Assembly: GCA_963736875.1 (NCBI GenBank)
Contig: CAVTQH010000002.1
Span: forward strand, 199,927 to 263,926
Reading direction: 5' to 3'
DNA from: Candidatus Amesbacteria bacterium
Lineage (GTDB): Bacteria > Patescibacteriota > Microgenomatia > CAZETR01 > Amesbacteraceae
DNA: 64,000 nt
Both the position numbers and the translations under genes were made by a program. Positions 5,758-63,165 of this stretch are shown here, piece after piece. The notes below the pieces were generated by a model. That model ran no database searches and was not told the origin of the DNA. It saw only the letters and a list, made by a program, of their open reading frames with translations. Numbering within the stretch: position 1 is the stretch's first letter; each line of letters begins with the position of its first letter.

Positions 5758-6336
5758 ATGCTTAAGGATTTGTTTATATCAAAGACCCGTGTCAAGATTC
5801 TGGAAAATTTTCTTTCAGACCCCACCCAAATGTATCACGTCCGCGACTTGGTCAGAAGAACCGGTGAGGAGATTAACGCCGTCCGCCGTGAATTGGCCCG
5901 GATGGAACAGTTGGGAATGGTTAAAAAAGAACCCCGGGGTAACCGCCTTTACTACTGGTTTCGTCAGGATTATGTTTTTTACTCCGATCTTTTAAGTTTG
6001 GTAGCCAAAACTACCGGTATCGGCGAAAACATTATTAAAAACCGCCATAAACTCGGGCGGGTAAATATCGCCATGCTCGGCAGCCGTTTTGTGCGTCATG
6101 AACCGAAAGATCAGCCGGACGAAGTTGATTTGCTGGTGGTAGGGGATATTGTTCTGCCGGAACTGGCGGCAATTGTCCGGGCGGAAGAAGTCAAACGCGG
6201 TCAGACCATAAACTACACCCCCATGACCGAGGAAGAACTGAAATTTCGCCGGACCCGGCGTGACCCCTTCCTGCTCGGGATTTTAACCAACGGCCGGGTG
6301 ATGATTATCGGCAGCGACCAAGACTTGGTTGGTTAA
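5758..6336 (+). CDS. winged-HTH regulator fused to a minimal nucleotidyltransferase (MNT-like) domain
   Basis: An N-terminal wHTH (KTRVKILENF...LARMEQLGMVKK) is followed by a GS-x(n)-DxD motif (GSRFVRHEPKDQPDEVDLLVVGD). The track ORF starts at 5713. Confidence 0.45.
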   Translation: MLKDLFISKTRVKILENFLSDPTQMYHVRDLVRRTGEEINAVRRELARMEQLGMVKKEPRGNRLYYWFRQDYVFYSDLLSLVAKTTGIGENIIKNRHKLGRVNIAMLGSRFVRHEPKDQPDEVDLLVVGDIVLPELAAIVRAEEVKRGQTINYTPMTEEELKFRRTRRDPFLLGILTNGRVMIIGSDQDLVG

Positions 6337-6346
6337 CATCTGTCAT

Positions 6347-6532
6347 ATGAAACAGAAAATTCTCAAGACCGGCAACAGTTTGGCAGTGACCATTCCCGCA
6401 AAATTTGTTAGAATTTTAGGGTTAAAACCCGGAGACACGGTGGAAGTGAAATCCAATATCGCCAAAGGTACTCTCCACAGTACCTTTACGGGTACGGGTC
6501 AATTAAACCTGTTAAGCTCCGGGAAAAAGTAA
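6347..6532 (+). CDS. AbrB/MazE/SpoVT-type swapped-hairpin DNA-binding small protein
   Basis: KTGNSLAVTIPAKFVRILGLKPGDTVEV is the SpoVT-AbrB domain signature. It overlaps the stop of the upstream HTH-MNT gene. Confidence 0.5.
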   Translation: MKQKILKTGNSLAVTIPAKFVRILGLKPGDTVEVKSNIAKGTLHSTFTGTGQLNLLSSGKK

Positions 6533-6547
6533 TTTACCTGTTTTTTT

Positions 6548-19224: not shown

Positions 19225-19562
19225 GTAAAATATTTTACGATCATTTGGTTATCAGAGAGGAAATTGATTTCGAGCTTAACCGCTTTCAAATCGATCCCGA
19301 GGAGCAGGAAGAATTAATAAGTCTGATCGATCAGACTCTCCATCACCATATTTTAAACGTCATCTTAAATCACTTGCCCAAAGAAAAGCATACAGAGTTT
19401 ATTTCCCGGCTTCATGCCAAGCCGGATGATGATACCCTGATTGATTATTTAAAAACTCATGCCCACCCTGAAATTGAAGCCGAAATCAAAAAACAAGCCG
19501 CCAAGATCAAAAAAGAAATCCTGGCTGATCTCAAAAAATCCTCCCGCCGTACTAAATCTTAG
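19221..19562 (+). CDS. hypothetical protein, 113 aa, acidic/helical
   Basis: ORF only. Confidence 0.25.
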   Translation: MSKIFYDHLVIREEIDFELNRFQIDPEEQEELISLIDQTLHHHILNVILNHLPKEKHTEFISRLHAKPDDDTLIDYLKTHAHPEIEAEIKKQAAKIKKEILADLKKSSRRTKS

Positions 19563-21684
19563 CTTTTTTCAAAAGCAGGGAATTGGTAATCACCGAGACT
19601 GAAGATAATGCCATAATAAGTCCCGCCAGCTCCGGTTTGAGTATCAGTCCCCAAGGAGCCAACACTCCGGCGGCAATCGGAATTCCCAAAACGTTATAAA
19701 TCAGGGCAAAAAACAAATTTTCCCTGATTTTATTCATGGTTTTTCTGGACAAATTAATAGCCGCCGTGACATCACCGGGATCATTTTTAACCAATACCAC
19801 TTCCCCGCTTTCGATTGCCACATCGGTTCCCGATCCCATGGTAATTCCCAGATCGGCAGCAGCCAGTGCCGGCGCATCATTTATCCCGTCACCTACCATG
19901 GCCACGGTTTTGCCGGCTGCCTGAAGCTTCCTGATTTCCCCGGTTTTGTTTTCCGGTAATACTTCAGCTAACACGTTTTCTATTCCCAGCCCGGAAGCTA
20001 CTGCTCTGACCGTTTTCTCGTTGTCGCCGCTTAAAAGCCACACGTCCATACCCAGGCGTTTCAGCCTTTTAATCGCATTATTGCTTTCCGCTCTCACTTT
20101 ATCCGCAACTGCGATAAGTCCCAGCATCTTTTTATCTTTGGCCAGAATAACAGCGGTCTTGCCTTCATTTTCCCATTTTCCCGTCTCTTTCCCGGTGAAT
20201 TTAATATGATTTTCCGCCATCATTTTTTTGTTTCCCAGAAAATACTTTACCCCCCTGATCCTCCCCGTCACTCCCTGCCCGGGTATGGCTGTAAAATCGT
20301 CAACATCTTCAATTTTCAATCCGCCTGATTTGGCCTTTTCGTAAATACATTTAGCCACGGGATGTTCAGAATTTCGTTCCAGACTTCCCGCCAGCTCGTA
20401 ACACCTCCGGAGAGGAAATATCGGTTACTTCCAGTTTTCCCTCGGTTAAGGTTCCGGTTTTATCAAAAACCACGGTATCGATTTTTCCCGCTTTTTCCAA
20501 AGCTTCCCCGCCTTTAATTAAAATGCCGTGAGTAGCTCCCAATCCCGTCCCTACCATAATGGCCGTGGGGGTGGCCAGCCCCAAAGCACACGGGCAGGCG
20601 ATTACTATCACCGAAACCATTGCCAGGACGGCATATGTCAATGATGCCTGCAAAACCACATACCACACTCCGAATGTAACTAAGGCAACAATTAACACCG
20701 CCGGTACAAACCAGCCCGATACCCGGTCCGCCAGATTCTGGATCGGGGCTTTTGTCTCCTGGGCTTCTTCAATTAATTTGCTGATTCGCGCTATTGTCGT
20801 TTGTTCTCCCACTCTGGTCACTCTGATTTCAATTACCCCCATCTGATTTATCGTTCCTCCGGACAACTTTGTCTCCCTCTTTTTTATCAACAGGCAGGCT
20901 TTCACCTGAAAGCATCGACTCGTTTACCGCCGTCTGTCCCCGGATTATTTCCCCGTCAATGGGGATTGTTTGCCCGGGCCTGACCAAAACCATATCCCCG
21001 ATTTTTAATTTTTCCGTTTCCGTCTCGGTTTCCTGACCGTTTCTGATCACAGTGGCGGTTTTAGGCTGAAGCTGCCCCAATTTCCTGATTGCCTCCGAGG
21101 TTTTTCCTTTGGCCCTGGCTTCCAGCCATTTGCCCAAAAGCACAAAAGTGATTAATAAAGCCGAAGTTTCAAAATAGGTAGCCTCTTTCCCCCAAATTAA
21201 ATTTATGACGCTGAATCCGTAGGCTACCGACGTGCCGATGGCGATTAGTGAATCCATATTAAAAGACTTTGACCGCAAGTGCCGACCATGCCCCCCGGTA
21301 AAATCTTCTGCCCAAAATAAACTGTACGGGAGTGGCCAGGATCCACCCCAAAAAAGGCGGAAGCATCATAATCGGTGCGGACAATATTCCCGCCCAAATA
21401 AATCTTTTTTTATACTCCCGTATTTCCGTTTCCTTCCCTATTTCTCTTTCAGCGCCGCTCCCCGCGATTTCAATTTTTGCCCCGTATCCCGCTTTTTCCA
21501 CCGCTTCCACCAGCTGTCCGGCCAAAACTTGGTTTTCGGCAATCACTCTGGCCTTTTCCGTCGCATAATTTACGTTTGCTTCCGTCACTCCGGGGATTTT
21601 TCTCAGACTTCTTTGAATCAAAAGTGCACATGATGTGCAGTCCATGCCCGTGATTTCCAGATTTACCTGCTTTTTCCCAGTCAT
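19552..21684 (-). pseudogene. copA: copper-translocating P1B-type ATPase CopA, split into four ORFs by three frameshifts
   Basis: The pieces are 21259-21684 (HMA GMDCTSCA plus TM1-2), 20829-21278 (A domain), 20366-20905 (CPC, DKTGTLT) and 19552-20358 (GDGINDAP, C-terminal TMs). Each junction needs a 1-nt shift: ...ALAVK|SFNMD, ...DKV|SGGTINQ and ...EVTD...|ELAGSLERNSEHP. Confidence 0.7.
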
Positions 21685-21950
21685 TTTTCTTCAAACACCT
21701 TCATTACTTCGGCAATCGCCCTGTCGCGCTCTTCGGGCGTTCCCTTGACGGAGTCGGCGACACAGGTCTTGAGGTGGTTTTCCAAAATCAAGGCATCCAC
21801 TTTTTTCAAAGCCGCCTGTACGGCCTGGGACTGAGTGAGAATATCGATGCAGTAATCACCTTTTTCCACCATCTCAATCACTCTCTCCAAATGTCCTCTT
21901 ACAATTTTTAACCGGTGTTCCACACCTCCTCTGCTATCCGTGGTCCTCAT
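21681..21950 (-). CDS. csoR: CsoR/RcnR-family metal-sensing repressor (copper-sensitive operon repressor)
   Basis: An 89-aa DUF156 fold carrying the C-H-C ligand set (YCIDIL..., HLKTC). It sits immediately upstream of the copA remnant with a 4-nt overlap. Confidence 0.7.
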   Translation of the reverse strand: MRTTDSRGGVEHRLKIVRGHLERVIEMVEKGDYCIDILTQSQAVQAALKKVDALILENHLKTCVADSVKGTPEERDRAIAEVMKVFEEK

Positions 21951-33749: not shown

Positions 33750-34589
33750 TCAAAGGCTGAATCCTTTTTTGGCAGTCATTACTAATACATGTCCCCATCG
33801 GGATTTGCGCCGGTGGTATTTAACGCTGTTTAATCCTAAAAAACCGGTTATTTCCCGGCCGTACGGAAAAAACCACCAGCCCGCTACCGGATTGTGGCAA
33901 TAAGTCACAATCCGTGTCACACCGGCTCGTTTGGCCAGATCCGCGAGTCTTCCGGCTGACAGGTCATCCTCAAAACCGAATGCCCATTTGTTCCGCCGGA
34001 TAAGTATCTGTTTGGCCACCATAAACGGAATATCCCCGGAGTTGGGAGCCGCGATTACCAATATTCCTCCCGGCTTGACCAGCCGCCACATGATTTTGAT
34101 CATCTCAATTTTCCTGTCATCGGAAAAATGTTCAATCACCCCGCCGTTCCAGACCACGTCAAAAAATTTCCCGGGAAATTTCATGGAAAATGCATCCCGG
34201 CAATAAAATTTCGCTTTCAGTTTTTTTAATTTGAAGTATTTTTTTTGGAAAGCCAATGCTTTCTTCGAGATATCTACCAGATACAACTCCGCTCCCAAGC
34301 CGGCCAGATATGCCGAGGCCATTCCTGTACCGCTTCCCACTTCCAGAATTTTCTTTCCCTTTAAATTTTTTCCCATCACCTCTTCCAATTCTTCAAAATG
34401 GGCAATATAGTCAGGATTTGCATCAGCCTCGGAAGAATAACTTTCAGCAACTTTATCCCATAATTTTTCGGATTGCATACACCGATTGTACCAGTAACCT
34501 AAAGTTTGATAAAAAATATCCCGGTAATATAACTGGTCCCTTTCAGTAATCGGTTTCCGGTCAATATCCCTCCGTGGCTGTTTTCCCAA
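33750..34589 (-). CDS. class I SAM-dependent methyltransferase
   Basis: Motif I ILEVGSGTGMASAYL and post-I LYLVDIS. The true start is probably the internal M at ~34481 (MQSEKLW...), because the track ORF overlaps the Memo fragment. Confidence 0.6.
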   Translation of the reverse strand: MGKQPRRDIDRKPITERDQLYYRDIFYQTLGYWYNRCMQSEKLWDKVAESYSSEADANPDYIAHFEELEEVMGKNLKGKKILEVGSGTGMASAYLAGLGAELYLVDISKKALAFQKKYFKLKKLKAKFYCRDAFSMKFPGKFFDVVWNGGVIEHFSDDRKIEMIKIMWRLVKPGGILVIAAPNSGDIPFMVAKQILIRRNKWAFGFEDDLSAGRLADLAKRAGVTRIVTYCHNPVAGWWFFPYGREITGFLGLNSVKYHRRKSRWGHVLVMTAKKGFSL

Positions 34590-34990
34590 AGTTCCCAGTC
34601 AGTAGTTCCCAGTTTCTCCATGATCATCATTACCGTGGCCATCGCCGCCGGCGAATCCAGGTGGTTATCGTCGAACTTATACAAATTCAGGTAATCAAAA
34701 TTCCTGATGGTATTTATGGTCTGACTGTCATACTTTTCAGCCGGTTCAGGCAAATTATTATGGGAAAAATCCACACTCGCCACATATAAAGTGTTCTCCG
34801 GCATGATCTTGATGATAGCTTCAGCCATCCGCTTCAGAGTCTCCGGGGTATAACCGGGAGCGGTTAATATCGGCACAAATTCAGACCCGGTAAAAGCCTG
34901 TTTTAAATATTTTATGGGAACATTCACTCCGTGTTCATCACCAACCAGTTTGTCATCAATTACCAGTTGGCGGGAACTGCTGATTTAAGC
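34499..34990 (-). pseudogene. MEMO1-family (AmmeMemoRadiSam protein B-like) C-terminal two-thirds; N-terminal part missing or decayed
   Basis: ...LVIDDKLVGDEHGVNVPIKYL..., YVASVDFSHNN (DxSH) and NSHGGIL align with the C-terminal half of the intact Memo domain encoded at 35294-36904. The reading frame closes with a TAA at ~34990 and no Memo N-terminal motifs lie upstream in frame. Confidence 0.4.
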
Positions 34991-35293
34991 TGCAATACCG
35001 ATTTCCGGGCGATCGGGTAGTCGGGACTGCTTTCGGCCGTGGTGAACGTCCCGCCCCGCATCCGGAAATGGTTAGGGGAAAAAACTACAATAAACCGGGG
35101 ATTCTGGTTAATTTTATTTTATTGACGGCTCTGATGATTAAATCTTTTGCCAATTCGTGATGGGGAAGCACCACACCGCTGATACTCTGCCGGTTGCCCG
35201 GGATAACTTTATCAACCCTCAGCTCCCTGATTCCCAGGAAAACTGTCACTATAACTAAAATTAAAATCTTTTTCCGCATGGATAATACCGGGT

Positions 35294-36904
35294 TTAAAAA
35301 ACCTGGGCTTGATAAATATAAATTTCGGTTTCGGGATCCTGATAGCAATTTTTGGAAAGCCCCGCTTTCTGACTGCAAAGCTCCCCTAAAAATTCTTCCA
35401 AGCTCCATCCGGTGTCGGTAGCGACCTGCGGCAGAAATGTTCCCGAGCGGTTTCCCGAAACGATTACCACCCCGTCTGTTCCTAACCTGATCTGCTTCCA
35501 GTCACCGATTTTTTGTCTGGGGGTCATCACGGAAATTTCCAAAGTAATTTGAGAAAGTTCGGAAGCCGTAACCGGAGTAAACCGGGGGTCATTAGAAGCC
35601 GCATCCGCGGTTTTTTGCTGAATTACTTTATAAAGGGGTTCGTTGGGTTCAAACTCGCCGATGCACCCCCTCAGATCCCCGTTTTTTCTCAAAGTCACAA
35701 AAGCTCCCAGGGGATCATTCAATTCCGGATTTCTGACCGTGATTTCCCCGGGTAATTTTTTATCAGTGACAAAATCAGAAAGCGTCAGACGGGCAATTTC
35801 CAGCGCTTCTTTTTTGGCTTCCGGGGAAATTTCAGAAACAGCAAACTTCACCGTTGCGCCGGTAAAACCTATGGCCGCGTATCCCACCACCCGGTTTTTA
35901 TCGGATGTTACATCCCCGCTGTTTTGGTATTTCAGAAGTTTCGGAGGATCAAGTTTTAAAAGCTGCGAAACTTCCAAGGCCACTCTCAAAGCCTGAAAAC
36001 CGCAGGCCGGCGTTTCCACCCCGGGTTGTCTGACTGCGGTATTTTCTGCCATTTTTTTTTCAAACTCCGCTCTGCCGGCGGTTAATATTGCCTCTATCGT
36101 TTTTCCGTCAACAAGTTTGGCGGTATTGTAATCCGGGTAGTGGGACAAATCCGTGCTCACAACCAGAAGCGTTTTCTCATCCGTGTTTTGGGCGATTCGA
36201 AAAGCCAGAGCCGAAATTAATTGATCCGACGGCGTGCTCACCAAAATCGGAACAATTTTAAAATTATTAAGCACTTTTTGCAGCCATATAATTTCAGTTT
36301 CCAGCGAATGTTCTTTTTCATGTACTGTGGTATCGGCAATAATTTTCTGATCAGGGCTGATTATTTTTTGGGCCAGGTCGGTATCAATTTCTGCATTACC
36401 CAAAGGGGTTTCCCACACGCCTCCGGCAAACACCGCTGCGTGGTCGAAGCGGTGTTGATGGCTGGATCCCAGAATAATCACCCTGCCGAAATCGCTTCCT
36501 GCAATTTGTGCATAAGCCTCTGCTGCCGCTCTCCCGGAATAATCCAGTCCGGCATGGGGGACAATCAGTATCCGGAAAGCGCTGTCAGCGGAAATCTTTC
36601 GGGCTTGGGCAAGAAGGTTTTCGAGTTTGTTATCCAGCTCTTTAGTGTCTTTCGGGTAAAAAGTTCCTGCTGCTGCCGGTTTCCGGACGGAATCGGCTCC
36701 GGAAGTGCCGGCACTTGCCTGATTGCCTCCCGGCGGATTCGGACTGCGCCAGGCCAAAATCCCGATTATCAAAACCATGCCCAGCGTTATCCCCAATGCG
36801 GTCAGGACGGGATTTCTGAAATTTATTTTCATTCTGACTGTATTATAATCATAGCCGGTGAAGAAAATTTTAATGGTATTTTTGATACTGATTCTTCTGG
36901 GCAT
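35294..36904 (-). CDS. membrane-anchored MEMO1-like + AMMECR1 fusion protein (AmmeMemoRadiSam proteins B+A fused)
   Basis: N-terminal TM; Memo motifs AGTFYP, VPHAGLDYSG, LGSSH and VSTDLSHY; C-terminal AMMECR1 (LRGCIGEFEP...). Confidence 0.65.
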   Translation of the reverse strand: MPRRISIKNTIKIFFTGYDYNTVRMKINFRNPVLTALGITLGMVLIIGILAWRSPNPPGGNQASAGTSGADSVRKPAAAGTFYPKDTKELDNKLENLLAQARKISADSAFRILIVPHAGLDYSGRAAAEAYAQIAGSDFGRVIILGSSHQHRFDHAAVFAGGVWETPLGNAEIDTDLAQKIISPDQKIIADTTVHEKEHSLETEIIWLQKVLNNFKIVPILVSTPSDQLISALAFRIAQNTDEKTLLVVSTDLSHYPDYNTAKLVDGKTIEAILTAGRAEFEKKMAENTAVRQPGVETPACGFQALRVALEVSQLLKLDPPKLLKYQNSGDVTSDKNRVVGYAAIGFTGATVKFAVSEISPEAKKEALEIARLTLSDFVTDKKLPGEITVRNPELNDPLGAFVTLRKNGDLRGCIGEFEPNEPLYKVIQQKTADAASNDPRFTPVTASELSQITLEISVMTPRQKIGDWKQIRLGTDGVVIVSGNRSGTFLPQVATDTGWSLEEFLGELCSQKAGLSKNCYQDPETEIYIYQAQVF

Positions 36905-45930: not shown

Positions 45931-46623
45931 CTATTTCGCGGTCCTTTTTAAAAGCTCCTCAAAACCATTATGGATATGCCGGCGGATATTTTCCTCGGGG
46001 ATATTTCCCATCGGGTCAAACACTGGGGAGAGATATACATGGAAGCCCGACGGAAAGACAGGTTTGGCCAGCGAGTAGACGGACGGGAATTCCCGTACCA
46101 TATCGATCACGGTATTTCTGATTCGTTCCTCCTGTCGGAATGTTTTCCGGCTGCCGTACGGCGCGACGTTGCCGATTGCATGAGGCCGGTCAATCAGGTT
46201 CAAATAGTCATTCATAACTTCCAGGTTTGTGCCCTTACGCTGTCCGTATTCCTCTTCGGAAGCATGCTTTGCATCCTCAAATCTCACCACTTTCTGAATC
46301 GATAAATGCTCCTTTTTTATTAATTGCTTTAAAAATCTCACCTCCAAAGAATGAATTGACCCATTTGATTGTCATCAATCCGGCGGCAAACTGCAGATCC
46401 GGTATCTCTTTAGCCAGGGCAATGATCGAAGCAAATATATCCAGTTCTTTCCGGTGTGCATCCAGATCCAATGCCCCTTTTTCTTACTAACATCCTGCAG
46501 CTGGTAAATAGCTTTTCTGGTAATCGGATCATGGGAAATATGGCTGAGGGCTATAGCAAAATGGCCGAAAGGAAAAAACCCGTACATTCGGATTTTGGAT
46601 ATATCTTCGGATACTGCGCTCAT
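45931..46623 (-). other. overlapping ORFs in three frames (45931-46347, 46277-46471, 46375-46623), possibly a degraded gene
   Basis: Two same-frame ORFs are separated by TGATGA. A third frame carries ...LDLDAHRKELDIFASIIALAKEIP.... Confidence 0.2.
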
Positions 46624-46750
46624 ATAAAAGGGGATTATATACCTATGGGGCCAGCTGCAGGATATGATTAAAACCCTCGGTCCTGACGCTAAAATTGCCG
46701 ATATTCAGAATGCCGTTCGGGAACAAAGTAAAACAAGGCGCAGGAGATAA

Positions 46751-47341
46751 TTAACGGTTTGCCAGCCACAGGGCTAACTGCCGGTAATGAATGCTGTCTT
46801 TATTTTGTCTTGCGTCCCTCTCAGCCCGCCAGGTTCGGGAAAACACGCACAGGGGTTTGTTTTCACCCGGAGGAATCAGTATCCGGTCAAATTCGCCGGC
46901 AACTTCATCCATCGGATCCCAGATTTTATCAGCCAGGGTAAATCCGCTGTCAACATAGTTAAATATTTTCGGCTCCTTCATTCCCGGCTCGAGATAAGCC
47001 AGGGACTGACGGAATTCTGCGTTTCTGTTAGTTTCTCCTGTCATCAATTTCAATATTCCGGCTATACCGATGGTATCCGTTACAAAATGAATAAAAGTTT
47101 TGGGAAATCCACCCAAAGCCTCAATAAATATTCCGGAGTCTTCCACCATCAGAGGGGCATTTACCATTTTTATCGCCTGGAGGGCTTTTTCCGCAACGAT
47201 TTTTTCCGGATCTTCCTCCCTTGGCTCAATTATCTCCGCTTCTTTTTGGATAACCTTAATCCCGGATCCGGCAAGGGCTGTCTGCGCATGCAAAATCTTG
47301 GTCTGGTTACCGGTTATAAAATATATGACTTTCTCCATCAC
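46751..47341 (-). CDS. rdgB: non-canonical purine NTP pyrophosphatase (Ham1/RdgB/ITPase family)
   Basis: An FITGNQTK N-terminus and the Ham1 fold length. Confidence 0.6.
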   Translation of the reverse strand: MMEKVIYFITGNQTKILHAQTALAGSGIKVIQKEAEIIEPREEDPEKIVAEKALQAIKMVNAPLMVEDSGIFIEALGGFPKTFIHFVTDTIGIAGILKLMTGETNRNAEFRQSLAYLEPGMKEPKIFNYVDSGFTLADKIWDPMDEVAGEFDRILIPPGENKPLCVFSRTWRAERDARQNKDSIHYRQLALWLANR

Positions 47342-47438: not shown

Positions 47439-47948
47439 TCAAGACCTGTTTCCCTTTTGAATTTTTAATTCTATTGCTCTTTGGATTATTCTTTCTCCGA
47501 TTTCTCCCCAATCAAAATATTCCCGGTAATCTTTTGGATTGATAAGTTTAATCTCCGTAATACTTCCGTCTGGATCTTTTTCGAACTTTCCCAGAGGTTC
47601 GACAATAGCGCAAAACCGAAGTTGATAAACAGTATTATCATCGGGAGTTGTAACTTCTTGTACTCCTACAGGAAAGGCTTTTAAAACTTTCATATTAGTT
47701 TCTTCCTGAACTTCTCTGATTAAGGTTTGCTCAAAGGTTTCCCCTTTTTCTATGTGTCCTCCGACCAGACCCCAACCTTTGCCGTCTTCCCCGCTTTCCC
47801 CCCTTACTATTACCAGGTTGTCATCACAGAAACAAACTCCGTAAACCTGCTGGCATTTATCGTGGGGTAGAGAAGAAAAAGAATCCAAATCATAGTATTT
47901 CACTTTTACAACATACCCTTTCCAAATAAATGACGAATTTATTGTCAT
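47439..47948 (-). CDS. NUDIX hydrolase
   Basis: Nudix box GGHIEKGETFEQTLIREVQEETNM. Confidence 0.7.
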   Translation of the reverse strand: MTINSSFIWKGYVVKVKYYDLDSFSSLPHDKCQQVYGVCFCDDNLVIVRGESGEDGKGWGLVGGHIEKGETFEQTLIREVQEETNMKVLKAFPVGVQEVTTPDDNTVYQLRFCAIVEPLGKFEKDPDGSITEIKLINPKDYREYFDWGEIGERIIQRAIELKIQKGNRS

Positions 47949-47989: not shown

Positions 47990-48040
47990 CATGCAGGCAT
48001 GCCCGCCGAATTACAGTACCCCATCACCCCGGATCTTCAC
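47990..48040. repeat. copy 1 of a ~50-bp intergenic repeat (core aTGCCyGCCGAATTrCAGTAyCyyrTCAyCCCGrAT)
   Basis: atgcccgccgaattacagtaccccatcaccccggat: about 40/50 identity to copies at 55445-55496 and 63087-63138. Confidence 0.55.
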
Positions 48041-48105
48041 AGCCCGGAGTTAAGGAAAACGCATTTGAAAATACAGGGTTGAAAATCCCTTATTAGAGAC
48101 CTATA

Positions 48106-48774
48106 ATGCCACCCATGCGGACAGAGCAGGAGCGGGGACAGATCATCATCCGCCAGCGTGAGGGCAAGCCACATTTACAGGCATACGGATTTGTGGATTT
48201 CGGCAGTTTAATTGAAACCGTTTCCGAAATGGGCTTGAGTGAAAAAAGAGCCTCAAGAATAAAAAAAATAATCACTGCCGGAAGTGATCAGGTCCAGAAT
48301 TTACTGGCAACCGGAGGCGCCATCACTACGGGTGGCCGGATTGTTGCCATGGGTGAGGAAGACAGCCATTTCATTGAGACTTTCTTTATATCCAAACCGG
48401 AAAAAGTGATTACTCATGCCTCGGGGGCTGAAGTGGAAGGAATCGCCCGTTTCAGAGACAAATACGAACTCTATTTAAGACCCAGGGGAAAAGTAATGAT
48501 TTTCAGGGAAAATGCCGGTAGCCAACTCGGATATGATGTTTATAGATTGGGCAGTTGCAGTTTACGGTTTGCGGACACGGCTGATGATAAAGTGGGGTAT
48601 GAAGGCGTAAGGGATGCTGATTCCCTGTTCAGGGCTGTTGCCAACCGTTTCACCCGGATGTATCTGCAAACCGGAATTCCTTTAAAAGGCGTGGTTGGTC
48701 CGGAGACATTATCCAAGCAGCTTCTATTAAACATTGCCGAAAAATCCGGGCGGTCGGTTCTGAATCGGTATTGA
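48106..48774 (+). CDS. hypothetical protein, 222 aa
   Basis: ORF only. Confidence 0.3.
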   Translation: MPPMRTEQERGQIIIRQREGKPHLQAYGFVDFGSLIETVSEMGLSEKRASRIKKIITAGSDQVQNLLATGGAITTGGRIVAMGEEDSHFIETFFISKPEKVITHASGAEVEGIARFRDKYELYLRPRGKVMIFRENAGSQLGYDVYRLGSCSLRFADTADDKVGYEGVRDADSLFRAVANRFTRMYLQTGIPLKGVVGPETLSKQLLLNIAEKSGRSVLNRY

Positions 48775-48780
48775 TCTTCT

Positions 48781-49488
48781 TTAATAATTTAATACGGCAA
48801 AATCCCCAGCCCTTAAAATTTCCATGAAGACGCTCATTGCCTCGTATTTACCGTTATCAAAGACAGGCCGTTTGACTCTCCATTCAAAGGTATCCGCCGC
48901 CCGATTTTTCCTGCCTTCAACAACCAATAGTTTATCCCTTTCCATAATCAGGCCGTTTTGCACACCTATGACAATGGGGGCAACCCAGCCGCTTCTTCCG
49001 TCGCGAACCCACTGAAAAGTCTCTCCCCTGATTCTTTGGAAAGGATTTTTTTCCAGAACGGTGGTTTCAAGCCGGTGTCCTGTTAAGTCAATTACCGGTT
49101 CTTTATCCGCCAGACGCAGAACCGGCAGGGCAATTATCCTGCCGGTTTTCCGCCAGGATATGGTGGCCCTGTCCAGCTCCTCGTCGGTCAGGTCGGGTAT
49201 ATTTATTCCGGCCGTCCCCACAACCAGGATTTCCCGTTTATGAATGATGGATTTTTTTAAAACCCCTTGCGCGTATTTAGGGATGATACCCCGGGTGTAA
49301 TCCAGCAGGTTCAGATATCTGACTTCGGTCTCCGGACAAGTCGCACCCGCAAATGCTTCCGGCAAACCGGCCAGGAGTTCCAAATCCGCAGGATCCTTAA
49401 ACCTGGGGGCATACGTTTCCATTACAATCCGTCGTGCCCAATCGGCATATTCATCTGTATCTTGGGGAGATTGTTCCGATGCAGCCAT
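48781..49488 (-). CDS. hypothetical protein, 235 aa
   Basis: ORF only. It is convergent with the previous gene. Confidence 0.3.
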   Translation of the reverse strand: MAASEQSPQDTDEYADWARRIVMETYAPRFKDPADLELLAGLPEAFAGATCPETEVRYLNLLDYTRGIIPKYAQGVLKKSIIHKREILVVGTAGINIPDLTDEELDRATISWRKTGRIIALPVLRLADKEPVIDLTGHRLETTVLEKNPFQRIRGETFQWVRDGRSGWVAPIVIGVQNGLIMERDKLLVVEGRKNRAADTFEWRVKRPVFDNGKYEAMSVFMEILRAGDFAVLNY

Positions 49489-49629
49489 GGGTCAAGTTTA
49501 TCACCGCCCATCTCCCCTTCCTGCAGCAGATAGAAAAATCTCAGGAAGTCAATCTCAAGATCAATAATCTAATCTAAAACTTTCTATATGGTTTATATAC
49601 TCGGAAGGAAACTTAAATTTATTAGCAGC

Positions 49630-50009
49630 TTATATTATTCTTTCCAAATAGTCTGACTGATCAAACTTACCTGCGGTTAGATTGTCATTATCGATATAAA
49701 CCCATGATTTAATATAAATACCTTCAAACCTTACATTTTCTTCTACTCTATTGTAAGTCTTTGGGATTTTATTATAACCTTCACTCTTATCTAATGCGTT
49801 CAAAGCAACATCATTAATATCAAATAATAGTCCATATACCTTTGGAACACGAATTTGTAGTATCAATAGCTATATTAGCCTTACAGCGGTTATTTTAAAA
49901 AAAATTCCCAACCTTCTAGTATAGCTACTCCTAATAACCCGAAGTTATCTACACATCTAACCTTCATTTGATTTAAATCCATGTTTGAACCATAAGCAAA
50001 GTATTTCAT
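49630..50009 (-). pseudogene. AIG2/GGACT (gamma-glutamyl cyclotransferase-like) family gene, frameshifted at an A8/T8 homopolymer (~49888-49895)
   Basis: An N-terminal piece MKYFAYGSNMDLNQMKVRC... (start ~50009) and a C-terminal piece ...VYGLLFDINDVALNALDKSEGYNKIPKTYNRVEEN... (49630-49866) lie in different frames. Confidence 0.45.
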
Positions 50010-50096
50010 TTTCTGCCTACAAAATAACCCAGACGAAGTAGGAGGTAAAGGTATTTGTAGCTTTCATACTTGCTGGGCGTGAAACAATTGAAGAAG

Positions 50097-51818
50097 TTAT
50101 GTTAGTAGATTTTTTAGATTCATAACATACTGATCTTCAAATGAATAACTATACTTTTTAGCCAAACTCCAGAATGAATCTTTAATATCTTGCTCATTGC
50201 GAATCAATTTTCTAGCTTCTGATAAGGAGGTAATAATATTACCCCTTGCCCTTGATGCCACCCTACTCAAATTAGTTGGTATCGTTGTTCTTAGTTTCCA
50301 GCTTTTAACGTCCCATATTAAATTAATACATGAATCAAGGTGGGTTTCATATTCACCAAACAGATCCTCGACCGCAAATCCATCAGGTAGAGTAATTATA
50401 TAAAGGTTACTTTTGGAATTAGGTATTAAATATTTTTTAAATCCATTGCTTAATTGAGGATCACCAACGATATATTTACTATACACATCTTTTCCTTTAT
50501 CGCTATCAACAATAAAGTATGCCTTCTTTTGTACAAGATCGGGTATATTTAATAAAACATCTATTGTTCTAGTTATTTGAGCTACACCTTCAAAACAGTT
50601 GGTAATTTTAATACCAACCTGTTCGTAAACATCCTTTGTTTCAGCTCTTTTATCTTCAATAAATGTTAGTAATTTGTCCTGAGAGGTATAGAAATATACA
50701 TAAAAGTTAGAATCTCCCATTAATTTCCCAATTTCAACTACTTCCTCCTTTGTCCATAATTTCATCTTTTTGTTTTTAACAACCACATGCTCTTTTAATA
50801 GACACCACTCTATGTTATCACCCCCTAAATTACTTGAGGCTAATATTATTGGGGAGTGTGTAGAAACGACCATTTGGATGTTCTTCAGCCAAGCTTGTGA
50901 ATTAAGTTCTTGAGAGAACTTGACCATTAAATCACCATGGAGAAAGGATTCTGGTTCTTCCAACAACCATATTGGGTGATATTCTCCTCTGTGAAGTGAC
51001 CTATCACTATCAAGTAAATAATGTGTTTGATATAAGATGGTTGATTGAGCTCCCGTTCCATGTGAGGTAAGCTCAATTTCTGGAAGTGTTTGTTGCCCTT
51101 TAAAACTTATATCAGAGATTTCAACAATTTCTTTAATATTTTTAGGAAGGTCAAGAGCTGCTTCACTTCCAGGCCACATAGTTTGCAGGCTTTTAGTTAA
51201 TGAGGATGAAAGGTACGATCTGGCTTGTCTACGAAATTCCTCCCACTTTTTTTGTAACTCATTAATACCTATAGATAAATTTGGGTTTCTACCCCAATTC
51301 GCTAATAACCTTTGTCTTAATTTTTCTTGCGCATTCTTAAGTAGATCTCTACCTTCTTGGGGGTGAATGTATGTCACCCTTACGCTCATTAACAACTTTT
51401 TAACATCTGGGTCAATATCGTCGAATGAATCATAAACATAACCTAAAAAGGTATATGAAAACGAAACTTTCCTTGATGATGGTAAAAATGTGATTATTTT
51501 CTTAATATCCGCCTTCTTATTCTTGAACAACCTTATCAGGCGATTTCTTAAAACATTACTAGTTAATTCTTCTAAATTAAATGTTATTGAGATCTCAGCA
51601 TGGTTATACCCTGCCTTTTTTGCTAGGTAGGTGGTTCTGTTTAGAAAAGTTTCATCTTGATATAACGAATCGTTAAAAAAGAAGTTTAAAGCATTTAAAA
51701 TCGCCGTTTTCCCTGCATTATTTATCCCTATTAAATAAGTTCCTTGGGATAAATTTATTTGAGTCTTTGACCGAAAGCACTTAAAGTTTTCTATTTCAAG
51801 CGAATTAATTAAACTCAT
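50097..51818 (-). CDS. OLD-family-like ABC-type ATPase with C-terminal TOPRIM/DUF4435-like domain
   Basis: Walker A GINNAGKTAILNAL, signature-like SHGTGAQS, Walker B IWLLEEPESFLH, H-loop VVSTHSP. The C-terminus has FEG...(Glu) and FIVDSDKGKD (DxD) as in TOPRIM. Confidence 0.55.
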   Translation of the reverse strand: MSLINSLEIENFKCFRSKTQINLSQGTYLIGINNAGKTAILNALNFFFNDSLYQDETFLNRTTYLAKKAGYNHAEISITFNLEELTSNVLRNRLIRLFKNKKADIKKIITFLPSSRKVSFSYTFLGYVYDSFDDIDPDVKKLLMSVRVTYIHPQEGRDLLKNAQEKLRQRLLANWGRNPNLSIGINELQKKWEEFRRQARSYLSSSLTKSLQTMWPGSEAALDLPKNIKEIVEISDISFKGQQTLPEIELTSHGTGAQSTILYQTHYLLDSDRSLHRGEYHPIWLLEEPESFLHGDLMVKFSQELNSQAWLKNIQMVVSTHSPIILASSNLGGDNIEWCLLKEHVVVKNKKMKLWTKEEVVEIGKLMGDSNFYVYFYTSQDKLLTFIEDKRAETKDVYEQVGIKITNCFEGVAQITRTIDVLLNIPDLVQKKAYFIVDSDKGKDVYSKYIVGDPQLSNGFKKYLIPNSKSNLYIITLPDGFAVEDLFGEYETHLDSCINLIWDVKSWKLRTTIPTNLSRVASRARGNIITSLSEARKLIRNEQDIKDSFWSLAKKYSYSFEDQYVMNLKNLLT

Positions 51819-51870
51819 ATGTTTTTTAAATAGCGGTTATGGCCTTAAAATAGCCTTAAATTTCTTAATG

Positions 51871-52500
51871 TCAAGCTATTCTAGTACCAGTATTTACTCC
51901 GCCGTGGTGGGAGCAGGTACCAGAGCGATGTTGACTAAAACTATACGTACCATCACCACACTTTGCAGTTGCCCCCACCGGAGGAGAATTGTAATAAGTA
52001 GGTGACTGTACTTTGTTTCCGTCTACATTTATATAGTAATCTGGGCTAGATTGAGTTTGGGGAGCTATTGTTGGAACTGGTTTAAATGTTGGTCTTGGAG
52101 TCGGCTTAAGAGTGGGGGTCAATGTTGGTGTTGGAGTTGGAGCTACAGTTAGGACCGGGGAAATAATTTCACTGGCTGGACTCAAGATTTCTACTCCCCC
52201 AATTTGTCCCTCAACTTTCGGCGACTCTGTTTTTATTTGGATGTTTGATCGTGGAACAGTGGAAACGTCTACTGGGATTTTTGGACTTGACCAAAACGAT
52301 GTTGAAATCAACGCCAATAAACACAAAGCCGCGATCGACCCAATTTTTACTTTATGCTTCCAGTTATTTCTGAAAATGACATAAGCAAAGAAAAAAGGCC
52401 AGAAAATGATTGCCAAAAGTAGTTTCCACCAAGTTTTATACCAGGGTCGTGGGGCAGACACGTCCGATTGGACGGTCATTAGCCTGGATGTTAGTTCCAA
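51871..52500 (-). CDS. membrane protein with PT-rich linker and C-terminal DUF3761-like Cys domain
   Basis: TM; (PT)n linker; YINVDGNKV...ATAKCGDGTYSFSQHRSGTCSHHGGV. Confidence 0.4.
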   Translation of the reverse strand: MELTSRLMTVQSDVSAPRPWYKTWWKLLLAIIFWPFFFAYVIFRNNWKHKVKIGSIAALCLLALISTSFWSSPKIPVDVSTVPRSNIQIKTESPKVEGQIGGVEILSPASEIISPVLTVAPTPTPTLTPTLKPTPRPTFKPVPTIAPQTQSSPDYYINVDGNKVQSPTYYNSPPVGATAKCGDGTYSFSQHRSGTCSHHGGVNTGTRIA

Positions 52501-52554
52501 GATGACCTATAGTCAAGTTTTACCGGGCGTGATCACATTATTTTAGACGACTTT

Positions 52555-53010
52555 TCAAGGTTGTGTTTCATACATAGCAACCTCACATTTTTTAGCAGTA
52601 AGACTTGTGCCACCTCTTGAATATGGTAAATCATGATCGAAATGTAGGTTCTGATTTGACTTACATATTACACATTTTCCTTGATCTCTTTTCCAAACCT
52701 CCTTTTTTACTTCCGATGGGATTAGTCTAGTATGAGAAAGTTGTACTTTCTGAATATCTCCCGAGATAGATTGGTTACCTGATAGTTTTAAAATAAAACG
52801 GAATACATTTCTATTACTATTGTTTTTCACTGTGTAATCAATAAGTTCGAAGTATCCCTTTGATGACCAAACTCCATTCATTATTTTTTCATAAACTTTC
52901 ACAATCTCAGGGTTGGCATCTTTTTCCTTGTATCCTTTTACTGCACGAATAAATAATCCATTCTGTGTTAATTTCCCTGAAGGTAATATTTCTGGCTGAT
53001 CGTCTAATTT
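52555..53010 (-). CDS. HNH endonuclease (start codon uncertain)
   Basis: CVICKSNQNLHFDHDLPYSRGG is an HNH motif. The frame is open back to ~53010 with no ATG. The upstream 64-aa ORF 53032-53226 is in the same frame, separated by TAA and TGA. Confidence 0.55.
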   Translation of the reverse strand, partial: KLDDQPEILPSGKLTQNGLFIRAVKGYKEKDANPEIVKVYEKIMNGVWSSKGYFELIDYTVKNNSNRNVFRFILKLSGNQSISGDIQKVQLSHTRLIPSEVKKEVWKRDQGKCVICKSNQNLHFDHDLPYSRGGTSLTAKKCEVAMYETQP

Positions 53011-53428
53011 TGGATTATGTCATATGCTTTTTTAGATATATCGTGTCCTTCGTATTCTATCGGTAATTCCATCGGAATATATTTTATCTTTATATGGGGC
53101 ATTTGATCTTTGGGACATCAAAATTAAAGAGTAACGAGGATTTAGTCGGTAATTCATTCCTCGTTGAAGAGTTTGAACATTTTCTAAATCACACATTTCC
53201 CTGTAAGAAAATATTTGATCAAGCACAGGTCAATTCCTTTTTAAACATAATTTGTATTTATTGGCTATTTAATTTACACTCTCCCCAAAAGAAAGCAATT
53301 GATTTGGGTCGAAAATATTATTTCCTCTTATTGATTCGTCTATTTCTCTTATTTTTTTATAACCTAAGAATTTAATAGCCTCGTTTAATTTTAAACACGG
53401 ATTGGAAAACGTTGGCCTTTTTAGCTCA

Positions 53429-54382
53429 TCAAACACTTTCCTTTTTCTTTCTTCGGAAGAGACAATAAAAAGTGGGTAACTTGAATTTGGGTTTCCTGAC
53501 TCTTAAATCTGATAACCTCAATATTCCTGAGTAAATCGAAGTCGTATGTTCAATTTCGAAGGCTGATTTAATTGAATATGGTCCATATTTCCATACAACA
53601 TCAATATTTTTAATTGTCGGAGGTACATCAAGTGATTCATGAAATTCTGATAATACGTGTTCTTTAAATCTATTACCTTGAAAGGACTTTCCTTGGTCGT
53701 TAGAGGGAACCCATATGTCAAATTTTGCCAATTCACCTAGCCTTATTAACCTCCATTGTATCTCAACATGTTCAGTAGTCGATTGTTCAATGTGTTCGTC
53801 AAGTTCTGTTATTGCCTTTGTTTGTTGTGGTATTTCTCTGATTTTTTCTCCCTTTTCTATTGTCTTTAGTGTACCTAATAAATCCCCATATCTGCTTAAG
53901 AAATATTTAGTTGCATCTTCATTTATCATTGTTAATCCTTGTGGAGAATAATTCTCCTTATATCCAAATAGTGGATTAATTTTTGATAGCGGTACCGAGA
54001 CTCTCTCTTCGTTAAGAATAAAATATATTAATTCCCAAGTTTCGCCCTCTGGAGTTTCATGCCAAAAATACTTAGCTAATTCTTTGCTTCTGACTTTAGC
54101 CGCTATCTCGCCAACAAATCTTATGTAACCATTATTATAAATAAGTACTACGTCTCCAGACTCCATTTTTTCCCATCGAGTTTCATTTAAAGGTCCTGGA
54201 ACAGCTCCCCAGACAATAAAGGGTAAGTTATGGTAGATATTTTCTAGATTACTGATCTCTTTTTGTGGAAGATAATTTCTTATTTCGTTAAGATTTCTTT
54301 TGTTTTGAATTGTATCCTCAAAATGACGTTGAGCCTCGTAGTTACCACCAGCAACTACAATAAATACTTTTCTAATCTTCAT
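53429..54382 (-). CDS. EVE/PUA-like domain fused to a restriction-endonuclease-like (PD-(D/E)XK-like) C-terminal domain
   Basis: The N-terminus reads PFIVWGAVPG...MESGDVVLIYNNGYIRFVGEIAAKV, EVE-like. The C-terminus reads ...IDVVWKYGP...FEIEHTTS.... A 2-nt gap separates it from the MazG-like gene. Confidence 0.35.
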   Translation of the reverse strand: MKIRKVFIVVAGGNYEAQRHFEDTIQNKRNLNEIRNYLPQKEISNLENIYHNLPFIVWGAVPGPLNETRWEKMESGDVVLIYNNGYIRFVGEIAAKVRSKELAKYFWHETPEGETWELIYFILNEERVSVPLSKINPLFGYKENYSPQGLTMINEDATKYFLSRYGDLLGTLKTIEKGEKIREIPQQTKAITELDEHIEQSTTEHVEIQWRLIRLGELAKFDIWVPSNDQGKSFQGNRFKEHVLSEFHESLDVPPTIKNIDVVWKYGPYSIKSAFEIEHTTSIYSGILRLSDLRVRKPKFKLPTFYCLFRRKKKESV

Positions 54383-54384
54383 AT

Positions 54385-54855
54385 TTAAAGCTGATTATAC
54401 TTTGTGTGTTTACCCTTTGTCTTTTCAATAGGGTACCTTAGATTGTTCTTTGCTATTTTCTTATCAAGAGCTGCCAATATATCAATATTTAAATCATTAC
54501 TCATAAGTAATACCCAATACAACACGTCAGCTAATTCTTCGCCTATTTCATTTTTATGATTCTTAACATGTTCTTCGATCTCTTCTTTGTTCTTCCATTG
54601 GAAGTGTTCCATTACTTCTGCTGCTTCTAGAATCAGAGATAGAGATGCATCTTTAGGATTATGAAACTGCTTCCAATCCCTAGCATTCCGGAAATTGATA
54701 ATTCTCTGAGTTAAACTTTTTATTGTTTTCACTTTTAGCCTGATTTTACTCCTTTTTTCCCTTTTTTCGCGGATTTGATAGGATATAGATAGTGAAATTA
54801 ATAAGCGTACGGAAATTGGGATTTTATAAAAGCAAGTTCTTTGTCTTTTTCGCAT
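54385..54855 (-). CDS. MazG-like nucleotide pyrophosphohydrolase (all-alpha NTP-PPase, YpjD-like)
   Basis: RDWKQFHNPKDASLSLILEAAEVMEHFQWK...IGEELADVLYWVLLMSNDLNIDILAAL. The real start is probably ~54760. Confidence 0.55.
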   Translation of the reverse strand: MRKRQRTCFYKIPISVRLLISLSISYQIREKREKRSKIRLKVKTIKSLTQRIINFRNARDWKQFHNPKDASLSLILEAAEVMEHFQWKNKEEIEEHVKNHKNEIGEELADVLYWVLLMSNDLNIDILAALDKKIAKNNLRYPIEKTKGKHTKYNQL

Positions 54856-55436
54856 CTGCTTCTATTTTGGTAGTGCTGTTGTTTGTATTAAATAATTTAT
54901 TTATTTCCCTGGCTGGAACCTTACTTTTCATAGTACTTTTTAAAAAATACAAACCCTATGAAAAAGGTTTGTTGGGTGAAACGGACATCAGCGATGAATT
55001 GAGGAAACTTCCACCTGAATACCATTTCTTTTCCGATATAGAAACTGACCGGAGTAAGGCCAATATTGATAAAGTGCTTATCGGACCAACCGGGGTATGG
55101 GTAATAGAAGTTAAAAATATGCAGGGTAAGTTTACTTTTGATGGCCAGAAACTGTTAAAAAATGGTTATCCGATGCCAAAAGATATCCTTAGCCAAACCT
55201 GGAAGGAATCCTATACCATCCGCGATTTAATCAAAGAAAGATTAAATTTTGGTGTTACTGTCCAGCCAGTACTGGTTTTTTCCAGTTCCAAGGCATACTT
55301 TAAGTTTGGAATGAATAAGGTGAAGGGGATTTATATTATCGGGAAGAAATGGTTGAACCAGTTAGTGAATGAAAAAACAACCCAACCTCTAGACCCCCAA
55401 ACCATCGATAAGATTTCAGCTATCTTCAAATTTTAA
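54792..55436 (+). CDS. NERD-domain (nuclease-related domain) membrane protein
   Basis: Two N-terminal TMs, then GLLGETDISDELRKLPPEYHFFSDIE...IDKVLIGPTGVWVIEVKN. Confidence 0.55.
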   Translation: MKLISVRKLGFYKSKFFVFFASASILVVLLFVLNNLFISLAGTLLFIVLFKKYKPYEKGLLGETDISDELRKLPPEYHFFSDIETDRSKANIDKVLIGPTGVWVIEVKNMQGKFTFDGQKLLKNGYPMPKDILSQTWKESYTIRDLIKERLNFGVTVQPVLVFSSSKAYFKFGMNKVKGIYIIGKKWLNQLVNEKTTQPLDPQTIDKISAIFKF

Positions 55437-55444
55437 ACCTCAAA

Positions 55445-55496
55445 GCGTGAGCACGGATTTATGCCTGCCGAATTACAGTACTCTGTCATCCCGAAT
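55445..55496. repeat. copy 2 of the ~52-bp intergenic repeat
   Basis: gcgtgagcacggatttatgcctgccgaattacagtactctgtcatcccgaat: 30/30 then 18/22 identity with copy 3. It is followed by a CCGG-rich hairpin and a T-run. Confidence 0.6.
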
Positions 55497-55535
55497 CTGC
55501 GCGGTCCGGGCCGGTCCGGTGCCGGGAGTACTGAT

Positions 55536-55886
55536 TTATTTTTTGTCCAAAAAAGCAGCCATTGCGGAAACCACCCGCGCTTGCCAATCCAGAATATGGG
55601 CTTCCTGTATCTGCTCCCCTTCGGTGGTAATTGAAGTAACTGATTTTTTAACTACTTCCGCTTCCCAGTCCACCTCCCGCAAATCGTCCATTGGTCCTCT
55701 TGACGGGGGCATTTCCGTATTGCGCTTCTGGAACATGTACAGATTCGGGCATTCAACTTCATAAGTCTTGGCTGTTTTACCGTCGTCCGCAAATTGTTCC
55801 CTGGCCATTTCCGCCAATTTTCCCAAGGCAAAGCATTTACGCTCTATTCCTACCACCGGGCACCCTTCACATCTTACTACCGGCAT
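55536..55886 (-). CDS. small Cys-containing protein, 116 aa (CEGCP...C...C)
   Basis: ATG preceded by GAGGAG. It lies 9 nt downstream of the 58-aa gene. Confidence 0.35.
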   Translation of the reverse strand: MPVVRCEGCPVVGIERKCFALGKLAEMAREQFADDGKTAKTYEVECPNLYMFQKRNTEMPPSRGPMDDLREVDWEAEVVKKSVTSITTEGEQIQEAHILDWQARVVSAMAAFLDKK

Positions 55887-63086: not shown

Positions 63087-63138
63087 CGCGTGAGCACGGA
63101 TTTATGCCTGCCGAATTGCAGTATCCTGCCATCCCGAA
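63087..63138. repeat. copy 3 of the ~52-bp intergenic repeat
   Basis: gcgtgagcacggatttatgcctgccgaattgcagtatcctgccatcccgaat. It is preceded by an inverted repeat aaatccgcgcgca...tgcgcgtgagcacggattt. Confidence 0.6.
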
Positions 63139-63165
63139 TGCACTACCAGTGTATAATTTCAGCAA

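Follow-up and report, generated by a model that had tools for sequence, protein, structure and literature searches.

We analysed a 64-kb window (the whole stretch of DNA presented above, at its full length) and focused on an AT-rich island at positions 49,490-55,440, which holds seven genes, including candidate nucleases of defence type. Composition was read in windows of 500 nucleotides (nt), 1 kb and 100 nt, and as the guanine-plus-cytosine (GC) content of third codon positions (GC3) for each gene. The features of the locus are as follows (protein lengths in amino acids, aa):

49490-55440: AT-rich island between host genes 48781-49488 (minus strand) and 55536-55886 (minus strand), delimited by GC and GC3
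49630-50010, minus strand: disrupted GGACT/AIG2-like gene, recovered by a three-frame reading (PF06094)
50097-51818, minus strand: OLD-family ABC-ATPase with a predicted Toprim-like C-terminal region, 573 aa, frame intact
51871-52500, minus strand: membrane-anchored DUF3761 protein (PF12587, E = 2.9e-21)
52533-53226, minus strand: SRA-like plus HNH endonuclease gene with three frameshifts, recovered by reading the strand against intact homologues
53269-54382, minus strand: predicted YTH/EVE-like reader plus NmeDI_C (PD-(D/E)XK-type) nuclease, about 370 aa, one frameshift
54385-54732, minus strand: MazG-like NTP pyrophosphohydrolase, 115 aa from a probable GTG at 54732 (PF12643, E = 1.6e-15)
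54792-55436, plus strand: membrane-anchored NERD-domain protein (PF08378, E = 7e-17)
55445-55496, plus strand: right-border copy of a dispersed ~50-nt repeat, 9 nt past the NERD stop codon

The GC content of 500-nt windows was 0.31-0.40 at 49,500-55,250 and 0.44-0.54 on both flanks, and the mean over 49,490-55,440 was about 0.33. When 1-kb windows were used, 50-55 kb was the sole part of the 64 kb with a GC content <0.40. An internal bump (0.40-0.43 at 51,750-52,500) is explained by the part of the DUF3761 gene that encodes a Pro/Thr-rich linker. In 100-nt windows, the composition switched at 49,450-49,550 on the left, immediately beyond the start codon of host gene 48781-49488, and at 55,400-55,450 on the right, just past the NERD stop codon at 55,436; each switch was complete within about 50-100 nt. 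The GC3 values of island genes were 0.22-0.40, compared with 0.44-0.59 in 12 flanking or distant genes. The sharp drop in GC described in the initial annotation, which had been made from the sequence alone, was thus borne out, and neither sliding-window GC nor codon usage was uniform across the region. The host appears to be a Microgenomates-like bacterium of the Patescibacteria, or Candidate Phyla Radiation (CPR), because genes for MiaA, RecJ and CCA-adding enzyme of bacterial type are present in the window, and because a large membrane protein with a VIT domain, encoded on the right of the island, shares 45% identity with a protein of Candidatus Amesbacteria and 36% with one of Shapirobacteria. 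Members of this radiation have tiny genomes and few recognised immune systems.

The OLD-like protein has an N-terminal ABC-type ATPase in which Walker A and B are present, and its profile matches (AAA_15, E = 8.6e-23; PADLOC Old, E = 1.6e-24) were confined to the ATPase half. About 200 full-length homologues (42-66% identity) were found in Patescibacteria, Margulisbacteria, Leptospira, Bacteroidota and Chlamydiae, and 30 of them served to build an AlphaFold model with a predicted local distance difference test (pLDDT) score of 87.6. Foldseek local alignments of this model to GajA, Ts OLD and Eco8 OLD extended over 500-650 columns, well past the ATPase head. In the C-terminal region, the invariant residues E388/D389 follow a predicted strand (384-388), D438xD440 follows a second one (433-437), E484, E489 and K546 are invariant as well, and the predicted topology is strand-helix-strand-helix-strand. 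This region appears to be a Toprim arrangement, at the level of fold and motif only; an hhalign alignment of the C-terminus to an OLD_TOPRIM protein did not support Toprim. The ATPase with a TOPRIM-like tail proposed in the initial annotation therefore stands, the former by profile and the latter by fold and motif. No GajB/UvrD/PcrA-like helicase was found in 46-59 kb, where the neighbours of the OLD-like gene are the DUF3761 gene and the GGACT pseudogene; because a UvrD-like partner is absent, assignment to a Gabija system was rejected.

The second candidate nuclease is encoded by a 317-aa open reading frame (ORF) at 53429-54382 that runs on, past a frameshift near 53,495, into the ORF 53269-53436, with its last ~75 residues in the other frame. 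The repaired protein of 370 aa gave 985 matches and covered 99-100% of homologues of about 372 aa at 64-74% identity, and the truncated product of 317 aa (P0121) is also found in the deposited record. The family assignment (PF27126, NmeDI_C) came from precomputed annotation, the local Pfam copy giving no match, and the PADLOC REase_II profile (351 positions) matched residues 205-327 of a homologue, P0122 (E = 4.6e-10). Five residues of the family are invariant (E208, D262, K266, E277 and E279). The fold was modelled with AlphaFold from 25 close homologues on P0122, which is 74% identical to the repaired window protein, and the N-terminal 180 residues of this model had pLDDT values of 70-91. 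The closest fold to this domain was the N-terminal domain of T. gammatolerans McrB (6p0f; Foldseek E = 1.9e-7, template modelling score 0.67 on the target; profile match E = 0.083), and further Foldseek matches included MJECL36, the EVE-HNH enzyme VcaM4I (E = 1.6e-4) and eukaryotic YTH domains. The model thus suggests a PUA-superfamily reader domain of YTH/EVE type. The EVE label of the initial annotation is appropriate at the superfamily level, but the domain is apparently nearer to the YTH-like N-domain of T. gammatolerans (Tg) McrB than to a canonical EVE domain. No DNA methyltransferase gene was found in the island or beside the reader-nuclease homologues in loci L006-L013. Fusions of PUA-type readers with nucleases are a hallmark of modification-dependent restriction enzymes (PMC6765204, PMC7897488), and by analogy the reader-nuclease would belong to the type IV (modification-dependent) restriction enzymes.

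The stop codon of the MazG-like gene lies 2 nt ahead of the reader-nuclease ATG. Its longest ORF reaches 54855, and the GTG start at 54732 was chosen by reference to homologues of 112-119 aa; the frame is intact, and the product also matched the pyrophosphatase family phrog_3301 (E = 4e-16). The same gene order, with a 4-nt overlap, was observed in Levybacteria loci L006-L009. Among the 80 metagenome loci encoding the reader-nuclease that were used for neighbourhood counts, however, a MazG-like gene was detectable in only two, and a general MazG plus nuclease operon was rejected as a rule. The tight pair that had been claimed is therefore real here and on the Levybacteria contigs and absent from the other 78 of the 80 loci, so that the pairing is lineage-restricted. 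The closest homologues of both members of the pair (68% for the MazG-like protein) come from CPR contigs of low GC content (for example, L021 with a GC content of 0.38). Our literature search found no paper joining the EVE domain, MazG and restriction, and MazG is mentioned neither in an EVE survey nor in a screen of modification-dependent endonucleases.

Upstream of the DUF3761 gene on the minus strand, a third candidate nuclease gene starts with a GTG at 53226, ends with a TGA at 52533 and shows frame changes near 53060, near 53015 and near 52590, the last being an A5-to-A6 change. The repaired 232-aa protein aligned end to end, at 48-52% identity, with intact homologues in four loci (L079, L089, L090 and L093). 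The HNH match was weak on the window copy and reached 24.7-33.8 bits in the intact homologues (Pfam cut-off, 21.4), whereas SAD_SRA scored 19.6-28.7 bits in these homologues (E = 1e-6 to 8e-4), below the cut-off of 30.7; a PDB search gave a weak match to the SRA domain of SUVH9 (E = 0.096). The predicted layout is therefore SRA-like plus HNH, as in modification-dependent endonucleases, with an SRA match below threshold.

In the GGACT/AIG2-like gene, a 78-aa ORF (49630-49866) matched PF06094 at model positions 54-104 only (E = 8e-6). The N-terminus (MKYFAYGSNM..., from about 50010) lies in another frame that ends at a T8/A8 run near 49895-49902, and at least two frame changes are needed between the two; the frame-repaired protein of 127 aa matched positions 1-104 of 120 (E = 3e-11). 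The frames of the remaining two genes are intact. The DUF3761 protein consists of an N-terminal transmembrane segment, the Pro/Thr-rich linker and a C-terminal DUF3761 domain, and the NERD protein, whose gene is divergent from the MazG-like gene, has N-terminal transmembrane segments. Pfam and PADLOC profiles, together with the fold search, confirmed or refined all seven domain calls of the initial annotation.

We examined the neighbourhoods of homologues in other genomes and metagenomes. In a Patescibacteria genome (L004), an OLD homologue (6001-7722) lies among N6_N4 and D12 methyltransferases, ICEA and AIPR, and overlaps a D12-class methyltransferase gene. A second homologue (L094, 5001-6731) follows MutH-like, C5-methyltransferase and Vsr genes, 31 nt after Vsr, and precedes AbiEii; a third (L097/L098, 5001-6713) has an N6_N4 methyltransferase on one side and a ResIII helicase on the other, with 5-nt gaps, and another (L096) adjoins a second OLD-Toprim gene. 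Among the 80 reader-nuclease loci, a homologue of the SRA-HNH gene directly adjoins the reader-nuclease in the four loci that supplied its intact homologues, a small DUF3761 protein adjoins it in four others (L024, L035, L046 and L050) and is encoded at most 5 kb away in two more (L037 and L038), and a NERD gene (39% identical) is directly downstream in one (L059). The neighbouring DUF3761 proteins comprise a signal peptide, a Q/P/T-rich linker and DUF3761, and their genes occur on either side of the YTH-NmeDI_C gene and in either orientation. The proposed link to defence islands is thus supported by gene content: homologues co-localise elsewhere with known defence systems, the OLD-like family in restriction-modification and abortive-infection clusters and the SRA-HNH, DUF3761 and NERD genes recurrently beside nuclease homologues. 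No close members of the OLD family or of the nuclease family were present in IMG/VR. This absence is neutral with respect to defence and removes the argument for a phage origin, which was rejected.

From the composition, domain content, fold, neighbourhoods and frameshifts described above, we infer the activities of the individual modules, an anti-phage role and a direction of transfer. We consider it likely (probability of about 0.75) that 49,490-55,440 represents a defence-gene island gained by horizontal transfer in a Patescibacteria (CPR) chromosome, with four kinds of DNA-targeting modules and with frameshifts in the GGACT gene and in the genes of both modification-dependent nucleases. 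The first module would be a stand-alone OLD enzyme, in which the ABC head couples ATP binding and hydrolysis to two-metal nicking or cleavage of invading DNA by the Toprim region; two-metal nicking and cleavage of DNA have been demonstrated for the Thermus and Vibrio OLD enzymes (PMC6755086, PMC7049728, PMC12392090). In the second, the YTH/EVE pocket would flip out a modified base (5-methylcytosine, 5-hydroxymethylcytosine or an N6-methyladenine-type base) and the NmeDI_C domain would cut nearby, while the MazG-like pyrophosphatase, putatively coupled to it in translation, would remove non-canonical deoxynucleoside triphosphates (dNTPs). The SRA-like plus HNH protein may form a third module, a second modification-dependent enzyme that likewise reads a flipped-out modified base and cuts nearby, as is the case for VcaM4I and SRA-HNH enzymes (PMC6765204, PMC7897488). 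The membrane NERD protein, which is nuclease-like, would be the fourth. NERD, DUF3761 and GGACT are domain labels only, to which the proposed mechanism assigns no role.

The frameshifts bear on whether such a system would still be functional. Six of them, which the initial annotation had missed, are distributed over three of the seven genes (two in GGACT, three in SRA-HNH and one in the YTH-nuclease), and only the OLD, DUF3761, MazG-like and NERD frames are intact. Because three of the seven genes are frameshifted, the island appears to be partly non-functional or mis-assembled. Two genes of normal GC elsewhere in the window are also broken:

19552-21690, minus strand: copA-type heavy-metal P-type ATPase gene in four consecutive ORFs, three frameshifts
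34502-35300, minus strand: Memo-like gene split into at least three frames

The ORFs of the copA-type gene match, in turn, HMA, E1-E2_ATPase 2-71, E1-E2_ATPase 64-180 with the start of Hydrolase, and Hydrolase 44-191. The census was obtained by inspecting gaps and is not exhaustive. Under length-weighted random placement, the concentration of five shifts outside the island in 2 of 47 genes had a probability of about 6e-4, and that of 11 shifts overall in five genes a probability of about 9e-5; the window also contains unbroken ORFs of 3.3, 2.5, 2.4 and 1.7 kb. This clustering modestly favours real pseudogenes over random assembly error and leaves decay unproven, with the caveat that a locally poor assembly would cluster errors too and that the broken genes otherwise keep family-invariant residues. 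The shifts could instead be assembly or consensus errors, caused for example by low-complexity AT-rich sequence or by a long-read or mixed-population metagenome, in which case all seven genes would be intact and the island fully functional. We regard this as quite possible, if on the doubtful side. Two of the six island shifts lie at homopolymers (T8/A8 in GGACT and A6 in HNH), the genes show no in-frame stops away from the shifts, and the breakage of the copA and Memo-like genes at normal GC would point to a genome-wide or assembly-wide tendency; yet several shifts lie away from homopolymers, their clustering contrasts with the unbroken ORFs of 1.7-3.3 kb, and the deposited record likewise calls the truncated reader-nuclease. 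If the decay is real, both modification-dependent nucleases may plausibly have been inactivated because of a conflict with host DNA modification.

Two side observations concern such genes. The Memo-like gene adjoins an intact fused AmmeMemoRadiSam B+A gene (35294-36904). Three overlapping ORFs in different frames at 45934-46704 (minus strand; 146, 68 and 109 aa), without any family match, may be another frameshifted gene.

As for the origin of the island, horizontal acquisition, which the initial annotation had proposed from the composition shift, is supported by that shift together with the phyletic spread of homologues, and these two lines constitute the evidence for it; a member of the same radiation with a lower GC content was the probable donor. 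The repeat noted at the right border is real, but it is a dispersed intergenic element and not an insertion scar. The copy at 55,445-55,496 is 92% identical over 52 nt to 63,088-63,139 and is followed on its 3' side by a terminator-like hairpin (55517-55533) with a T-run; a weaker copy at 47,999-48,047 is 80% identical over 49 nt to 55,461-55,509. All three copies, with the core GCCTGCCGAATTACAGTAC...CATCCCGAAT, are on the plus strand, and two of them lie 60-100 nt upstream of plus-strand genes (48106 and 63166), before a TATAAT-like box. The repeat may therefore be a promoter-region or 5'-leader element. A reading as an attachment (att) site was rejected, given the dispersed distribution, the best partner at 63,088-63,139 and the lack of a partner at the left border. 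The equal orientation of the copies at 47,999-48,047 and 55,461-55,509 is also compatible with the remnant of an integrated mobile element of about 7.5 kb bounded by the repeats at 47,999 and 55,461, which would include the normal-GC genes 48106-48774 and 48781-49488, both without family assignment and almost without homologues. We judge such an element to be very improbable, given that the 55,445 copy has its better match outside it, two copies are placed like promoter elements, the composition shifts at 49,500 and not at 48,000, and neither an integrase nor a transposase was found. A different alternative is that the MazG-like and YTH-NmeDI_C proteins serve conserved maintenance or repair of nucleic acids, by clearing modified nucleotides and removing bases that are modified or damaged, and lie in a variable region by chance. 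This would agree with the identity of 64-74% across CPR, Omnitrophota and soil bacteria with a GC content of 50-58% (about 985 homologues), with the many reader-nuclease copies that stand alone among ordinary genes (L010-L013), and with the fact that no PADLOC system model matches and only the generic REase_II profile does. Its distribution is patchy, however, and its composition here is foreign; it repeatedly adjoins SRA-HNH and NERD genes, shares its predicted nuclease domain with a characterised restriction enzyme (PMC2095814), has the reader-plus-nuclease layout that marks modification-dependent restriction (PMC6765204, PMC7897488) and was dispensable enough to be frameshifted here, so that a maintenance role seems decidedly unlikely.

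Several observations weigh against the interpretation as an acquired defence island. With regard to acquisition, the window contains no transfer RNA gene, and no integrase or recombinase domain was found in it; the repeat has no partner at the left border, the longest repeat common to both borders being 8 nt; and no empty site could be shown in a relative, as the collections contain no close one. A scan of genome contigs with the VIT protein showed that the VIT gene (28-45% identity) is all that the nearest genomes have in common with the window, without synteny, and the left-flank protein of 235 aa had no relative in Joint Genome Institute (JGI) metagenomes and matched, in the protein database, only itself and two homologues (43-46%) on ~1-kb contigs. 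With regard to function, confidence is low in the nuclease half of the P0122 model (pLDDT 26-40), conservation of the reader-nuclease family across phyla is exceptionally high for a defence gene, and R.NmeDI is a type II enzyme that acts on unmodified DNA (PMC2095814). The C-terminus of the OLD-like protein lacks a Pfam OLD-like_TOPRIM match, and a PDB profile search with its C-terminal 234 residues was empty; this is expected because OLD C-termini are too degenerate for alignment-based detection (PMC7049728). The absence from IMG/VR and the chance that the frameshifts are assembly errors, both considered above, belong to the same list.

A more far-reaching version of the defence interpretation would hold that the YTH-like/NmeDI_C nuclease is the core of an undescribed modification-targeting module, with MazG-like proteins in CPR, SRA-HNH enzymes and small secreted or membrane DUF3761 proteins as partners, and that the GajA-like OLD protein represents a stand-alone or restriction-modification-embedded class distinct from classes 1-4. 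We hold this to be unlikely and put it forward tentatively. If it were true, phage-specific modified dNTPs would be eliminated by the pyrophosphatase, modified DNA would be cut by two readers that differ in specificity, and the conservation of YTH-NmeDI_C across phyla would point to a constrained, possibly dual role in self-maintenance and immunity.

Other parts of the window and one related locus yielded further observations. The NUDIX gene at 47439-47948 (minus strand; GC content 0.38, GC3 0.32) is clearly lower in GC than its neighbours and adjoins a Ham1/ITPase gene (46751-47341), which makes a second nucleotide-sanitising set 1.5 kb from the island. In the locus of a Candidatus Amesbacteria relative (L001, 1-5000), the GC content falls to 0.37-0.40 in a region about 5-10 kb upstream of the gene for the VIT protein, compared with 0.45-0.49 elsewhere in the locus. 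This region, which contains no homologues of the island genes, may be a further variable one in a similar place. The sole Rfam match at threshold in the window was RF00373 (archaeal RNase P) at 2563-2827 (plus strand; 88.8 bits, gathering score 84). The proteins of the window are bacterial/CPR, and lower scores were obtained there with the bacterial RNase P models of that clan.

Each component of the island lies in or close to a described class, and as a whole it is typical of defence islands, except that its host is unusual; current concepts are left unchanged. It offers a concrete case of CPR genomes gaining compact nuclease-based defence cassettes and then losing parts of them. The YTH-NmeDI_C family (about 1,000 homologues) is very widespread, highly conserved and experimentally uncharacterised, and it merits follow-up together with its recurrent neighbours (SRA-HNH, DUF3761 and MazG-like). 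Equally worth pursuing is the GajA-like OLD family, which lacks a helicase and often lies inside restriction-modification operons; these families and the recurrent neighbours are the less ordinary points.

Among known systems, the TagI and ScoMcrA-type enzymes are SRA-HNH modification-dependent endonucleases. The layout predicted for the island gene, an SRA-like N-terminal domain followed by a C-terminal HNH domain, corresponds to theirs, whereas the family found here scores below the SRA cut-off and adjoins the YTH-NmeDI_C gene in four unrelated loci, and its copy in the window has three frameshifts; the SRA-HNH group has been described previously (PMC6765204). The OLD-like gene resembles the class 1 OLD nucleases of phage P2 (Old), Thermus scotoductus (OLD, 6P74) and Vibrio cholerae (OLD) in being a single gene without a helicase partner and in having an N-terminal ABC-ATPase followed by a Toprim-type C-terminal region with conserved acidic residues (PMC7049728, PMC12392090), and the Thermus scotoductus structure matched our model with a Foldseek E-value of 2.3e-15. 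The best structural match over the whole length was Gabija GajA (8U7I, 8SM3), which is similar in size (578 aa, compared with 573 aa here) and whose PADLOC profiles match the ATPase half.

Like enzymes of the PUA superfamily (the EVE-HNH enzymes VcaM4I and TspA15I, and T. gammatolerans McrB, 6P0F), the reader-nuclease has an N-terminal YTH/EVE-type reader, fused here to a predicted nuclease, and lacks an adjacent methyltransferase (PMC6765204, PMC7897488). However, VcaM4I and TspA15I carry HNH and McrBC a GTPase-nuclease, where the protein described here has a predicted NmeDI_C/PD-(D/E)XK-type domain; its family is far more conserved than typical type IV enzymes and, in some of its CPR members, is accompanied by a coupled MazG-like gene, and the window copy is frameshifted. 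The NmeDI_C C-terminal domain is common, by Pfam annotation, to the Neisseria meningitidis type II enzyme R.NmeDI. That enzyme is paired with a cognate C5-methyltransferase and acts on unmodified RCCGGY (PMC2095814), whereas no methyltransferase accompanies the protein encoded in the island, whose N-terminal half has the predicted fold of a modified-base reader.

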